From: a virus
Taxonomy: Duplodnaviria; Heunggongvirae; Uroviricota; Caudoviricetes
Virus record (IMG/VR): IMGVR_UViG_3300045988_142058
DNA: 47,591 nt
Strand: one strand, 5' to 3'
Part shown: piece by piece, positions 40,221 to 46,380 of the stretch
Position numbering within the stretch: the first letter of the stretch is position 1
Layout of the letters: each line of letters begins with the position of its first letter
Program-made: the position numbers and the translations under genes
The notes under the pieces: generated by a model
Databases searched by the model: none
Told to the model about the DNA's origin: nothing
The model's input: only the letters and a program-made list of their open reading frames with translations

Positions 40221-40261
40221 TGGCGCTTACATTACACCACCATAAAACGATCCGTAAAGGA

Positions 40262-40534
40262 TCATTTGATCCCTTGTTCCAATTCTGACGACACTTTAAC
40301 CTTTTCCCATACAAGGGTTTGCAGCCTTAACAGAATCGCGTCTTTATCAAGGTGTGAAAGATCCTTCACCATATCGTCAAACGACAGAACGCGAATGGCC
40401 ATCTCAATGACCCTCGGCGGCTCCCCCTTCTCATATCGCTTATATGTAGCCAACGATATCCCAAATTCTTCGGCGGCTCGCTCCTGCGTCCAGTTCATCC
40501 CACGACGCCATAATTTCAATTCATAACCCGTCAT
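40262..40534 (-). CDS. XRE-family HTH DNA-binding protein
   Basis: Start at MTGYELKLWRRGMNWTQERAAEEFGISLATYKRYEKG with AGGAGG RBS; perfect IR upstream. Confidence 0.55.
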   Translation of the reverse strand: MTGYELKLWRRGMNWTQERAAEEFGISLATYKRYEKGEPPRVIEMAIRVLSFDDMVKDLSHLDKDAILLRLQTLVWEKVKVSSELEQGIK

Positions 40535-42745: not shown

Positions 42746-43041
42746 ACATCTGTTTTGTTATCAATGAAGATTAACCCTAACCCAGCGAAGTAACACAGCA
42801 GCGCCCAGGCTGCATACGGAATGCTGGATCTGGATGTGGACTCCTTTAACATCTGCCAGTTGCGAACATTGCGACTATCTTTTAAGCCTAGTTTTTTGGC
42901 CAACTGCGAGCCGCTCATTCCGGTCAGGCCAATGACTGCCCGAACTTCTCCACATGTAGGAGATTCCCATTCATCCGCTTTTTTTAAACAAGCCGGATTC
43001 AACATTTTTAAAACAGTATCTTTATCCATAACCATCTCCAT
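42742..43041 (-). CDS. Putative HTH DNA-binding protein
   Basis: HTH-like GLTGMSGSQLAKKLGLKDSRNVRNW; hydrophobic C-terminus. Confidence 0.4.
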   Translation of the reverse strand: MEMVMDKDTVLKMLNPACLKKADEWESPTCGEVRAVIGLTGMSGSQLAKKLGLKDSRNVRNWQMLKESTSRSSIPYAAWALLCYFAGLGLIFIDNKTDV

Positions 43042-43089
43042 TTATTATATCTACGATGGTAGGAAATCTTTTCCTATGTGGCAATAGAA

Positions 43090-43670
43090 ATTTACTACAT
43101 TGCGTATAAGACAAGTTTTCTATGTCTAATAGGAAATGATGTTTCTTACGTTTTATCGCGTTCTGATGGCTACTGTGTGCGTATTTATCGACGTTTATCG
43201 ATAAGGCTCGCCCCTTCCTCCTGCAAAGCCCGGCCGTAGGCCTTATTTCGGCCTTATATAAATTGATTTTGTATAGTTCGAAACGTGCCGTTTCGAAAAG
43301 GATGATCAGGCTGCTCCATGCCTCCGGCAAGTGCCGGAGGAGGTATATATTTGAGCGTAGCGACTCGAACCGGCGCGAGCTTTAGCTCGCTGCAAGGGCG
43401 AACATATTCACAGGCAAAGCCTGCGTAAGTTAAATAAAGAAAGTCTTAATAAAAGAAAGTGATTTTGCATTTATTTGTTTAGTGCATCTATTATAAAAAA
43501 CCATTTGCATATACATATCAAAACTGTGGATAACTTTATTAGCCGATGCCTGTGAAGGCGATATTTTTGCTGTGTTCAGGTTTAGAGAAAATTAATTTAG
43601 ATTGTTTTTTGAACAAACATTTTATTGCGACGTAGATAATCCTCCGGTAAAACCGGATTCATCATTAAGG
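43090..43670. other. Candidate replication origin downstream of repA
   Basis: ~580 bp without credible ORF; DnaA box TGTGGATAA at 43525..43533; AT-rich stretch with ATTTGCAT repeats; perfect palindromes 43277..43297 and 43321..43340; TTTATCGA direct repeats. Confidence 0.45.
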
Positions 43671-43674
43671 TGGG

Positions 43675-44523
43675 TTAATGTTGGAGTGATTTCCAGGTCT
43701 TTCTTAACCTGTTATAACGCTGCTCAACGAGGGATCGTAAATATGCAAGGTCAGCTCCAGGATACATGCCATCAGCAAATTCCTGGCTAACCTCTCTAGT
43801 GATTTGATGACGAAGTTCGGCCTCTCCCTTTTCCCGAACAAGACGCGCAGCTCTCTCCGCTGCTTTCTGTTTTGCCTTTATCTCTCTGGCCGTCTTCCTC
43901 TGACGCCATACATTCTCCATCTGCTCCTGAATAACAATACGCTTATAATCAGCCTCCGTTATCGCTTTTTTAAGCCGTTCGCTATTCTTCGCATTGAAGT
44001 AATTAAGTTTCTGGCTAACCGCACGTCTCCATGCTTGTTCAGTAATACCAACGGTTTCCAGCAGTTGATCACGAATCTCTATTTTCGCTGGCCAATACTG
44101 TTTATTCACCCGATCCCAGCGACGTTCATAATCAATAAAACCTAACTCTTTCAGTTGCGACAACGCCCTTGTACAGCGCGTTATAGACTTGTTCCCAGCT
44201 TCGGATACGGTAGACAGGCCGCAAAAATCAGCCAACGCCTCAGCACTGGCCAGAACCCGCTTAGAAATGATGTTTACATGGTGCAAAATCGCAGCAATCA
44301 CAGCATTAATTGCCCGACGACGATGCTCGTTTATCCGGCGTTTCCGCTCTGACGGTTGATTAACGTAGAACGCAACCTCACACGTAAGATCACGACCATT
44401 AATGCGCTGTAAAGCATCAGATAACACCAGCGGCAGCTTGTGCGTATGGTGCTTTGGAGGCTGGAACTCCGGCGACAAATTACAAACGTAAGCTGAACGT
44501 AGAGACGGCATTGGTCTATCCAT
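43675..44523 (-). CDS. repA: Replication initiator RepA, IncFII RepA1-like
   Basis: ATG at 44523 (MDRPMPSLRS...); block ...ALADFCGLSTVSEAGNKSITRCTRALSQLKELGFIDY... matches IncFII RepA1 pattern CGL-T-S-AG--SITR-TRAL--L-ELG-I-Y (from memory). Frame open upstream to 44685. Confidence 0.8.
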   Translation of the reverse strand: MDRPMPSLRSAYVCNLSPEFQPPKHHTHKLPLVLSDALQRINGRDLTCEVAFYVNQPSERKRRINEHRRRAINAVIAAILHHVNIISKRVLASAEALADFCGLSTVSEAGNKSITRCTRALSQLKELGFIDYERRWDRVNKQYWPAKIEIRDQLLETVGITEQAWRRAVSQKLNYFNAKNSERLKKAITEADYKRIVIQEQMENVWRQRKTAREIKAKQKAAERAARLVREKGEAELRHQITREVSQEFADGMYPGADLAYLRSLVEQRYNRLRKTWKSLQH

Positions 44524-44535
44524 ATGTTCGCTCTT

Positions 44536-44650
44536 GCGTCCACGGAAAACCAACGTATAATGGGAGTTGTCGAGGCGCCCATGGATATGTTTGTTGGTTT
44601 TCCGTGGATGTCGCAAGAAGCCCGCAGATTTATCTGCGGGCTTTTTGTTT
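44536..44650 (+). ncRNA. Candidate CopA-like antisense RNA in repA leader
   Basis: Plus-strand intrinsic terminator (9-bp stem 44620..44628/44633..44641 + TTTTTGTTT) antisense to repA leader; 16-bp stem-loop 44539..44608. 5' end not defined. Confidence 0.4.
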
Positions 44651-44690
44651 CCATATCTGGTCGTTTTCCAACCAGACACCCACAATCGTA

Positions 44691-44705
44691 ACCACGTTAC
44701 GTGGT
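44691..44705. promoter_or_regulatory. Operator-type ACCAC-gttac-GTGGT in repA leader
   Basis: Same half-sites and spacing as immunity operators; ~100 nt downstream of putative repA promoter. Confidence 0.5.
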
Positions 44706-44811
44706 TTTAAGAGAACTCTACCACAACACTTTCGGTCATGCACGAAGTCTCTCGCTAATCGAACGATAATCCACCAGTAAAAGGATCTAAATCGGATCTC
44801 GTGTTGCGAGC

Positions 44812-44839
44812 ATCATACTACTGGCCTAACTCCAGTCAA
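44812..44839 (-). promoter_or_regulatory. Putative repA promoter TTGACT-16-TATGAT
   Basis: Minus strand -35 (44834..44839), -10 (44812..44817), just after Tfa stop. Confidence 0.45.
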
Positions 44840-44861
44840 TGATGAACATAACAACACTCCT

Positions 44862-45389
44862 TTATTCTGGTTTGTCTGGCCATTCGGGGTTTGCTGTGTC
44901 CACGCGGCTGACAAGAACACTGTAGCGTTCCCATGCTTCCAGTCGTGTGCGTTCCTCGTCTGTTGCCATATTCAGCCTGACAGCGCGTTCCAGCGGCTGG
45001 ATGACTGATTCAGCTTCGGAAAGCAATGCGGCCTTTTGTGATTCGGCTTGTTGTTGCTGTTCGTCTGCCGTATAAATCCGTTTAACTACAGCTCCATCCT
45101 TAAACATCCACTTTCCTGAATCATCAGCGCGGCGGTTGGCTGTAATATCAGGAACCTCAACGACGCTAAAACCTTCAGGGTTAAGCGTGGAGGCATCTTT
45201 AGTGATGGCGACAATAATATTATTTGCATCGTAAACAATCTTTATTGTGTCTGGCTGAAAGTTTTTCACTTCCTCATACCAGTTTTTTCCGTCCTCAGAG
45301 TAAAGCCAGATAACTCCGTGTTTCTTTGTTAACTCATACTGTTCCAGTGTTTTAGCGTTACCCGCTTTTATGTTCTTTAAGTGCATCAT
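44862..45389 (-). CDS. Tail fibre assembly protein (Tfa-like)
   Basis: 175 aa after second fibre gene; C-terminal ...[13 protein letters not shown]. Confidence 0.6.
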
Positions 45390-45390
45390 A

Positions 45391-46380
45391 TTAAACGCTC
45401 GCTACATTATACCAGGTGCCATTTATATACTTTTGAACGGGTCTGTAATAAACGCCCGCTATATTATCGGCAGAGTTGGAACCTGTATCCTGAACATTAA
45501 TACCAGACAATACATGACCTGACGGGCACTGGAAATTCCATGTTTGCCAGTTGTTTACTCCATAATATTGCTGTGAACCAAGTCGAACATCTTTCACATA
45601 ACGGGAATCAAAGTTACCGTAATCCGAGGGGTTAACACGCCCTGTAATATTTATGGTTTTATTACTTTGAATGCTGCCGGAGACAAAGCGCATAACATGG
45701 ACGTTATTAGCATAAACGTCCAGATTACCGTCGCCATTTTGTTTAAAGCCCGTGTCATTATCACCCAAAACAATCGAGTTACCGCCAAGAGCACTGGATG
45801 TTCCGATACCCAGTGCACCATTCAATTGACCACCAGATAACGACAGTGCACCGACATCTCCCGCTGTAGGTTTTCGCGTTGTGGTATAAAACTCAGACCA
45901 GTCAGCCTCGAATCCGTAACCGTCACGAGCAGAACGATAAAAAATACCGCCGTTATTATAATTAACGCGGAACTGGGCGGCGGGACAACTTCCTTCACCG
46001 ATATTAAAATGAAGAATTAACGTTGATGCCCCACCAATAGTTGCGTTATAGGCTCCGCTACTCCAGTTCCATCCAACGGCTTTATCATTCGCAACGGTAT
46101 CTCCTGTTTTTCCTGAAGCAAATGCACCAATATTTTTCGGCGTCAGGTTAATATCTGATGTTCCATCAAACGAAACGGAATTAATCTTTCTCGCGGTTTT
46201 CAGCTTTGTAGCCGTTGAGGCATTGCCGGACAGCTCACCAGAAATGCCACCAACAACTGTTAGATCACCAGTTATTGTGCCGCCTGAACTTTCCAGTTTT
46301 TTAGCAACATCACTCTTAATAGAGTCGATTTCTTTTTTCAGATTAGTTATATCTGCTGGTATCGTTGTCACTGTTGCCAT
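45391..46380 (-). CDS. Second tail fibre protein
   Basis: 329 aa; [27 protein letters not shown] shared with first fibre; Gly/Asn-rich distal region. Confidence 0.65.

Follow-up and report, generated by a model that had tools for sequence, protein, structure and literature searches.

The window analyzed here, a 47,591-nucleotide (nt) stretch of viral DNA (IMG/VR record IMGVR_UViG_3300045988_142058; Caudoviricetes), is essentially a whole phage-plasmid of ~48 kb. Its replication initiator gene, repA, lies on the minus strand at 43675-44523 and is preceded by an mRNA leader of ~280 nt. That leader is our subject. Antisense-RNA control of copy number is textbook knowledge for IncFII-family replicons, and the principle is not new. 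We propose, with a probability of roughly 0.6, that this leader encodes an ~85-nt antisense RNA, read from a promoter embedded in the leader itself, and that the RNA controls copy number, perhaps by a pre-emptor-like refolding of the repA mRNA.

The repA locus

RepA, read from the ATG at 44523, is a 282-amino acid (aa) protein, and GenBank record AP019710 annotates an identical 282-aa RepA. The protein matches the Pfam family IncFII_repA (PF02387; 150.6 bits, E = 7.5e-44) over profile positions 2-272 of 275, and it passes the NCBIfam model NF040977, RepA_IncFII_LM, with 233.1 bits (cut-off 70). It falls below the strict equivalog TIGR03474, incFII_RepA (82.3 bits, cut-off 446.9). Identity to classical IncFII and IncL/M-like initiators amounts to 31-37% over the aligned parts; tblastn against incFII RepA genes returns 31-42% identity across 29-45% of the protein.

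The repA promoter (44812-44839, minus strand) consists of the -35 hexamer TTGACT (44839-44834), a 16-nt spacer, and the -10 hexamer TATGAT (44817-44812). A preliminary description of this DNA had named this promoter and a leader of ~280 nt before RepA, and both are present. The promoter scores 10/12 matches in a promoter scan, and both of its hexamers are kept in the E. coli-type and Salmonella-type relatives. Transcription should start near 44805, which would place the leader at 44524-44805 on the minus strand. The leader contains several conserved hairpins (RNAalifold, run on 6 types), and its fold has z = -7.65 (RNAfold). On the other side of repA lies an AT-rich stretch (43375-43675; GC fraction 0.29-0.36). 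It contains, ~140 base pairs (bp) downstream of the repA stop codon, the window's sole exact consensus DnaA box, TTATCCACA (43525-43533, minus strand). IncFII-type origins sit downstream of repA and, by analogy, this stretch is probably the origin of replication. Very likely, then, the replicon follows the general IncFII layout: promoter, leader with an antisense gene, repA, and origin.

The replicon belongs to a recognizable set of elements. The top plasmid matches to the window are circular E. coli plasmids of 47-50 kb, whose genes include a contractile-tail morphogenesis module, holins, ParA and ParB-like genes, and a toxin-antitoxin pair. The window also matches three close-kin phages isolated on Yersinia pestis (vB_YpM_39, 41, and 44), and related phage-plasmids exist in Salmonella and Klebsiella. 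Among 5,426 complete E. coli genomes, 71 possess the leader sequence, plasmid-borne in every case; strain ATCC 25922 is one of the carriers. PLSDB/MOB-suite gives no replicon type for the matching plasmids. Within the window, repA lies directly downstream of the tail-fibre genes and on the same (minus) strand. A gap of only 23 bp, which contains no open reading frame (ORF), separates the repA -35 hexamer from the end of the tail-fibre assembly gene (Caudo_TAP, 129 bits) at 44862.

A predicted antisense gene within the leader hairpin

To compare relatives, we gathered the control region from several groups, ~20 distinct sequences in all, which RepA identity divides into three diverged groups (100%, 81-85%, and 59-62%). 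E. coli-type variants possess elements that are 96-99% identical outside one hypervariable spot. The Salmonella/Klebsiella type (RepA 81-85%) comprises loci L003, L004/L011, and L012/L039. Locus L048 (RepA 62% identical) has the layout of the window, and the 59-60% RepA group consists of L025, L026, L041, L042, L049, and L050. Between groups, the stems of the large leader hairpin are rewritten and four plus-strand elements are constant: TTGC[G/A]T; TATAAT after a 16- or 18-nt spacer; G[G/T]TGTCGAGG right after the TATAAT region; and a GC-rich terminator.

The first two of these elements form the putative antisense promoter (44534-44561, plus strand), with a -35 hexamer TTGCGT (44534-44539), a 16-nt spacer, and a perfect -10 hexamer TATAAT (44556-44561), located within the large hairpin. 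TTGC[G/A]T-16/18-TATAAT exists in the window and in 9/9 relative types scanned, though RepA falls to 59% identity and the spacer sequence differs. Plus-strand positions 44440-44660 harbor only two promoter-like sites, and TTGCGT-16-TATAAT scores best. The other, TAGAGA-17-TATGTT (44500-44528), scores 8/12 and occurs in the window type only. We suggest that the embedded site acts as a sigma-70 promoter in the apical half of the leader hairpin. Antisense transcription should then start near 44566-44569, a 5' end placed to within +/-3 nt, and would stop at an intrinsic terminator near 44650.

The predicted product (44566-44651, plus strand) is an RNA of ~85 nt with three parts: an 8-nt 5' tail, GUUGUCGA; a stem-loop, SL I; and a terminator stem-loop, SL II. 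It folds with -41.2 kcal/mol (z = -5.63). The architecture is common to 15/15 unique variants and to L048 and L050; L049 differs in its single-sequence minimum-energy fold. RNAalifold on the 15 variants recovers SL I and SL II, with compensatory changes in 10/21 pairs. A covariance model, R1, was built from ten window-type RNAs, and the 59-60% group was not in its training set. R1 has a single match in the window (44566-44653, plus strand, 107.6 bits), and it recovers the untrained 59-60% group with 33-34 bits (E ~1e-6). It finds no match in pUM146, a classical IncF replicon, in L005, an IncL/M-like Klebsiella plasmid, or in L047, a relative to which we return below. Three AT-rich relatives (L016, L043, and L044; 47-48% RepA) were left out of the comparison. 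They possess a hairpin upstream of repA but lack the conserved promoter and tail motif, and R1 does not match them. A scan of genome contigs with the RepA alignment yielded one AT-rich 2.6-kb contig, titled Buchnera aphidicola, that contains too little upstream sequence.

SL II (44613-44650, plus strand) has every part of an intrinsic terminator: a stem, GCCCGCAGA (44620-44628), a UUUA loop, the returning stem, UCUGCGGGC (44633-44641), and a U tract, TTTTTGTTT (44642-44650). The preliminary description had placed such a terminator at 44620-44650 on the strand opposite repA, and it is indeed there. It is conserved, and 5/15 of its pairs show compensatory changes across groups. RNAfold gives it a 16-bp stem. 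The hairpin was not listed by a simple terminator scan, in our reading because the upstream A-run pairs with the U-run, so that the maximal stem takes in the T tract. An Rfam Thr_leader match (E = 0.0023) aligns that model's terminator hairpin onto 44620-44650, and an Rfam CsrC match (E = 0.00035) spans 44614-44647 only. No plus-strand gene lies upstream of the terminator.

The opposite strand, that is, the repA mRNA, forms the long leader hairpin (44533-44617, minus strand). Specifically, it consists of a lower helix (44617-44612/44538-44533), a 16-bp helix (44608-44593/44554-44539), an apical stem (44582-44578/44564-44560), and a conserved 13-nt apical loop, CGCCUCGACAACU (44577-44565), that is complementary to the antisense 5' tail. 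Positions 44539-44554 and 44593-44608 make 16 contiguous Watson-Crick pairs, or 20 bp when G·U pairs and a G-C extension are included. As mRNA, the hairpin has 97.1% of alignment cells paired and 3 compensatory pairs (7 cells). Its covariation is 0.085, compared with 0.039 in shuffled alignments (0/500 as high). The long helix is strand-symmetric, with 97.1% versus 96.3% of cells paired on the two strands. The 59-60% group has a hairpin at the same place, built from unrelated stem sequence.

SL I (44574-44612, plus strand) behaves differently. It has an outer stem (44574-44577/44609-44612), an inner stem (44579-44585/44601-44607), and a 15-nt loop (44586-44600). Over 12 variants, 97.7% of cells are paired and 2 pairs show compensatory changes; covariation is 0.123, compared with 0.065 in shuffled alignments (4/500 as high) and 0-0.034 in slid-partner controls. 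SL I has 39 G·U cells, and on the opposite strand only 68.2% of cells pair. G·U pairs of this kind exist on the plus strand only, which argues that selection has acted on SL I in a plus-strand RNA. Segment 44601-44607 is common to SL I and the 16-bp helix, and when both can form on one molecule the 16-bp helix wins, as in the fold of 44534-44656. A plus-strand RNA that displays SL I must therefore start downstream of 44555. By the same logic, SL I needs an RNA without 44539-44555, and the 16-bp helix is thus an element of the repA mRNA, which holds both arms. The preliminary description had assigned a 16-bp stem-loop at 44539-44608 to the countertranscript. The stem-loop exists as described, but it belongs elsewhere: its plus-strand 5' arm is the spacer of the antisense promoter, and it excludes SL I.

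These findings bear on a longer alternative, a CopA-like RNA of ~115 nt that would start near 44536 from TAGAGA-17-TATGTT, contain the 16-bp stem-loop and the terminator, and act by kissing and direct occlusion of the ribosome-binding site. The 8/12 score of the candidate promoter is in its favor, as is the stability of the plus-strand fold. The 123 nt at 44534-44656 fold with -69.5 kcal/mol, compared with -32.6 +/- 3.8 in 200 dinucleotide shuffles, none of which is as good (z = -9.76). The long helix covaries and is strand-symmetric, and a 5' end at 44536 would abut the Shine-Dalgarno (SD)-like AAGAG, offering a simple steric mechanism. Nonetheless, we consider the longer RNA unlikely, for all the strength of its fold (z = -9.8). 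Its promoter is missing from all the other types, whereas the in-hairpin TTGC[G/A]T-16/18-TATAAT is present in all. The covarying SL I, with its plus-strand G·U pairs, would lose to the 16-bp helix. The apical loop of such an RNA would not vary, and the hypervariable stretch would lie in an internal one. Finally, the CopA model RF00042 gives no match here, and its positive control does match.

Variation among E. coli-type sequences concentrates at 44586-44592, where 1-3-nt insertions and deletions (indels) occur. On the antisense RNA this stretch makes up the 5' half of the loop of SL I; on the folded mRNA it forms an unpaired internal loop above the 16-bp helix. An incompatibility determinant should show just this, namely unpaired, complementary patches that differ between plasmids identical elsewhere, and the hypervariable SL I loop is likely the specificity determinant. 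If this mapping is right, the loop offers a simple sequence marker for incompatibility types of these phage-plasmids. A second accessible complementary pair, the antisense 5' tail and the mRNA apical loop, is invariant.

The remaining alternative at this level is that the leader produces no functional antisense RNA and that its hairpins act in cis on the mRNA. The GC-rich hairpin would then be a bidirectional terminator or attenuator that insulates repA from read-through of the late tail-fibre operon. The gene order suits this idea, since the tail-fibre assembly gene and repA, which comes after it, are read from one strand. Read as mRNA, the hairpin runs into UUCUU, which is a weak U tract. 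Furthermore, the covarying leader hairpin could act alone, and several other conserved hairpins accompany it. The strand-specific features tell against a purely cis-acting leader: the strong U tract, TTTTTGTTT, exists on the plus strand only; a conserved perfect TATAAT with a TTGC -35 at the correct spacing points at the terminator; and the SL I pairs form only in a plus-strand transcript (97.7% versus 68.2%). We regard cis-only control as improbable, if the least improbable of the rivals, and a cis-acting terminator or attenuator role is compatible with the antisense reading as an additional function. The conserved promoter, the covarying terminator, the plus-strand-specific SL I, and the DnaA box together make an antisense countertranscript against the repA leader, as the preliminary description had proposed, very likely.

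Translation start and a possible route of repression

Where RepA translation begins determines what the antisense RNA could control. Throughout the comparison set an ATGGA start is conserved a few bases after the hairpin, which points to ATG 44523 as the regulated initiation site. Most relatives are annotated from a start that aligns with another in-frame ATG, at 44511. The window (MDRPM...) and L048 (MERPTM...) have ATGGA in the repA frame. An overlapping ORF of 13 or 46 codons begins with it in the Salmonella types. In the 59-60% group, ATGGA opens a frame, orfX, of 33-162 codons, whose stop codon overlaps the repA start (ATGA). Specifically, orfX encodes 158-162 aa in four loci (L026, 716-1204; L025; L041; L042), 33 aa in L049 (1403-1504), and 63 aa in L050. 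It is a paralogue of RepA's N-terminal half (28% identity, E = 4e-14) and has the appearance of a coupling leader ORF that arose by partial duplication of repA and is now decaying. The 59-60% group thus appears, from its sequences, to follow the logic of an antisense RNA acting on a leader ORF coupled to RepA. No separate, tap-like leader ORF ending at the window's repA start is conserved, and there ATGGA is in frame with repA.

The preliminary description had noted that the repA frame is open up to 44685 (a TTG) and that an overlapping 107-aa ORF begins at ATG 44654, and it had considered a coupling leader peptide. Both frames exist, but the coupling peptide does not hold: the frames are shifted relative to repA by 1-3-nt indels, and ATG 44654 is missing in the Salmonella types. 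A leader peptide running through the antisense target is ruled out by the same frame-breaking indels.

RefSeq/PGAP places the repA start at this leader-internal ATG, giving a 326-aa protein (window 44524-44654; L001, 3276-4256; L051, 678-1656). If that were correct, 44524-44654 would be coding, and RepA would possess a 44-residue N-terminal extension. In close relatives, a 1-nt indel brings the equivalent of ATG 44654 into frame and yields the RefSeq 326-aa form, and PGAP calls this form in CP020497 and many other plasmids. In the window, the ATG is out of the repA frame. Other variants differ by 2 or 3 nt between the 44654 ATG and repA, so that indels of 1-3 nt separate the variants, and the ATG is absent in the Salmonella-type relatives. 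Moreover, the Pfam domain begins right after ATG 44523, and the relatives' proteins begin at or after residue 5 of the window RepA. We therefore consider the N-terminal extension extremely unlikely. Under the same gene model, PGAP labels repA of E. coli ATCC 25922 "frameshifted", a pseudogene call that we ascribe to the 1-3-nt changes in the length of the hypervariable loop. The consequence for annotation is that RefSeq starts repA within the leader, and that pseudogene calls appear whenever the hypervariable loop changes length.

The predicted antisense RNA is fully complementary to the repA mRNA ~45-130 nt upstream of the start codon. Its target (mRNA 44567-44651) comprises the 5' arm, the internal loop, and half of the apical loop of the long hairpin. 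Judged by analogy with all characterized replicons of this RepA family, the RNA most likely determines copy number and incompatibility, through post-transcriptional repression of RepA synthesis. The duplex would end ~30 nt before the SD-like AAGAG (44535-44531). Given this distance, steric blocking as in plasmid R1 is unlikely; given also that a separate leader peptide is lacking, repression is probably indirect.

The notion is that the antisense RNA, on pairing, would strip the 16-bp helix of its 5' arm, the "pre-emptor". Left without a partner, the 3' arm (44555-44541) would then pair with the start region (44524-44509) and mask the start codons. Constraint folding yields such a helix (44509-44555, minus strand), in which CGUUGGUUUUCCGUG (44555-44541) pairs with UAUGGAUAGACCAAUG (44524-44509) over 15 bp. 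It would cover both candidate start codons and leave the SD-like AAGAG in the enclosed loop. With the target blocked, the pairing probability of the ribosome-binding region increases in 9/9 representatives, from 0.38-0.50 to 0.61-0.78, and all 9 form analogous helices over that region when the antisense-covered bases are forced to be single-stranded. In isolation, the window's alternative helix folds with -19.7 kcal/mol (z = -2.53); compared with shuffled and coding-window controls, its duplex energy has p ~0.045. Modeled in this way, the pre-emptor switch is the most likely single route of repression, although we hold it at somewhat less than even odds. Cleavage of the 85-bp duplex by RNase III and partial termination of the sense transcript at the bidirectional hairpin are possible additional routes.

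Several points count against this picture. The covariation derives from few independent lineages, ~5 types. The predicted 5' end depends on a promoter whose -35 hexamer matches only 3/6 positions. The antisense tail and the apical loop are the same in types expected to be compatible, which fits poorly with a pure specificity role; this pair might have another function. In 4/5 types, the 3' arm is no more complementary to the start region than controls are (p = 0.09-0.6), and the rise in pairing upon blocking the target is partly what any freed arm would give. Opening of the lower helix (CUUGCG/CGCAAG) would, in addition, bare part of the SD-like AAGAG and could have the opposite effect.

Two further mechanisms were considered and set aside. 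Transcription attenuation by the antisense RNA is unlikely, as neither the long hairpin nor the alternative helix is followed by a U tract. A pseudoknot formed via the apical loop finds two 6-mer complements in early repA codons, but they occur in permuted order and are absent in the Salmonella type, and we attribute them to chance.

Other parts of the leader are conserved in their own ways. Upstream of the antisense target, read from the alignment by hand, lies a hairpin that we call "a" (44654-44680, minus strand); its 9-bp stem is kept, with its sequence almost wholly replaced between the E. coli and Salmonella types. The H3 stem (44690-44706, minus strand), likewise upstream of the target, pairs AACCACG with CGUGGUU; these arms are invariant, and the loop is variable. 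Further upstream, a 9-10-codon ORF (44710-44742; MTESVVVEFS in the window) has the same frame and the same stop codon in the Salmonella types and L048. ATT replaces its ATG in L012, and we do not use it as evidence. Because the substitutions are non-synonymous, RNA structure is a more likely explanation of this segment than a peptide. RNAalifold also proposes a long-range pairing between AUCGUUCG, in the 5' part of the leader (~44760-44767), and CGAACAU (44524-44530), which sits between the SD-like sequence and the start codon. The pairing amounts to only 4-5 bp, is mismatched in some types, and is possibly due to chance.

Just downstream of the repA promoter, two GATC sites lie 11 bp apart (44784 and 44795; region 44784-44798). 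The window contains only four such close GATC pairs, this one included, and a second cluster has three sites at 40249-40268 (region 40249-40271). At the promoter, relatives keep both sites and their spacing but not the intervening bases; five GATC sites occupy this place in the 59-60% group. These could be Dam/SeqA sites that link repA expression to replication, or they could form a small GAUC/GAUC RNA stem, as RNAalifold draws.

On the far side of the promoter, homology with most relatives, including the three Yersinia phages, breaks off at ~44843 (window ~44843-44862). Most relatives possess a Hin/Cin-type invertase gene directly upstream of the repA promoter, and the window and six plasmids have the tail-fibre assembly gene instead. 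This difference suggests that the edge of an invertible tail-fibre segment abuts the repA promoter -35. CP032086 (94 kb), a linear record from ATCC 25922, contains two replicon copies and the same genes twice, with identical protein accessions. It could have served as a natural test of incompatibility, but in our reading the record is two copies joined head to tail, probably through concatemer assembly, and is thus uninformative. The tail-fibre regions of its two copies differ in gene order and orientation.

Relation to known control systems

Rfam searches compared the window with the described control RNAs of related replicons. Neither CopA (RF00042) nor the pseudoknots PK-repBA (RF01089) and PK-repZ (RF01087) match within 43000-45500 at E <= 10. 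As positive controls, CopA scores 90.4 bits in pUM146, and PK-repBA scores 56.7 bits in L005. With no RF00042 match and a RepA that fails the strict incFII_RepA model, the CopA-like identity that the preliminary description gave to the countertranscript is not upheld.

A different precedent comes from the IncL/M, IncB, and IncI-alpha replicons, in which an antisense RNA blocks translation of a leader peptide and an activator pseudoknot is required for repA. Several observations invite this model. RepA meets NF040977; the 16-bp helix resembles an extended form of the long-range pairing between target and near-ribosome-binding-site sequence; and the 59-60% relatives have a leader ORF coupled to repA via ATGA. 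In addition, L047, whose RepA is 63% identical to that of the window, contains PK-repBA at 1363-1489 with a UUGGCG loop (49.3 bits, gathering score 45). In L047, repA is also preceded by two XRE-type helix-turn-helix genes. The window itself argues otherwise. PK-repBA and PK-repZ have no match there (E <= 10), in L003 or L025 (E <= 0.1), or in L048-L050 (E <= 1), and UUGGCG/CGCCAA is not present in the window module as we read it. No separate leader ORF of the window ends where repA begins, ATG 44523 being in the repA frame, and the upstream frames are broken by indels. Leader-peptide and pseudoknot control is, in our judgment, very unlikely here. The presence of PK-repBA in the same RepA clade argues instead that control modules have been exchanged within the clade.

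Judged by its sequence, the window's module appears to be an untyped family of its own. It has no Rfam family, MOB-suite replicon type, or RNA annotation. In the literature on the related phages, their accessions, p0111, and phage-plasmid replicon control, we found nothing on the present replicon; as far as those papers state, p0111 is a replicon of the P1 group of phage-plasmids. We speculate, with the odds somewhat against us, that the module represents an undescribed riboregulator family serving IncFII/L/M-type initiators of enterobacterial phage-plasmids, with its promoter inside the target hairpin and a pre-emptor translational switch that needs no leader peptide. If so, the same bases would act as a promoter spacer in DNA and as an anti-sequestering arm in mRNA. 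To our knowledge, pre-emptor translational switches have so far been documented for Gram-positive plasmids and not for the IncFII/L/M initiator family, and a leader-peptide-free switch would extend pre-emptor-type control to these initiators. The relatives would, in turn, show a coupling leader ORF arising by partial duplication of repA and then decaying.

The likenesses to the CopA/CopT-tap-RepA system of R1 and R100 lie in layout. RepA belongs to the same Pfam family, and the gene order matches, running from the promoter through a leader that contains a convergent antisense gene to repA and an origin with a DnaA box. The countertranscript would be about as long (85-90 nt) and would likewise combine a 5' element with a terminator hairpin, and its variation is focused in a loop. 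In the 59-60% relatives, moreover, the antisense target is closely followed by a repA-coupled leader ORF, as in R1 and R100. Unlike those plasmids, the window has no match to CopA sequence or structure, no tap, and no copB, and its RepA fails TIGR03474. Neither copB nor a second promoter was encountered upstream of repA, where the tail-fibre assembly gene ends 23 bp from the -35. In R1, the antisense RNA acts by steric blocking (PMC12361487). The window differs in that its antisense promoter lies within the target hairpin and its target ends ~30 nt from the ribosome-binding site.

With the IncL/M (repBA), IncB, and IncI-alpha (repZ) systems, the window shares a RepA that meets NF040977 and a relative, L047, that carries a true PK-repBA. 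It would also share a principle: translation stays on as long as the target pairs at long range with sequence near the ribosome-binding site, a pairing with which the antisense RNA competes. Unlike in those systems, the pairing in the window is a full 16-20-bp helix rather than a short pseudoknot, there is no leader peptide (repB/repY), and the predicted antisense RNA has separate recognition and terminator hairpins.

Finally, there are the staphylococcal plasmids pSK41 and pT181. Their Rep families (RepA_N and Rep_trans) and hosts are unrelated to those of the window, and the alternative helix here has no terminator after it, unlike in pT181, whose switch results in transcription termination. 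The resemblance to their RNAI would be one of mechanism, not homology. A pre-emptor is present in pT181; in pSK41, the antisense RNA causes a ribosome-binding site ~100 nt downstream of its target to be sequestered (PMC5703833). Analogously, in the phage-plasmid an ~85-nt antisense RNA would bind upstream of the ribosome-binding site, remove the pre-emptor arm, and thereby free the other arm to close over the translation start.

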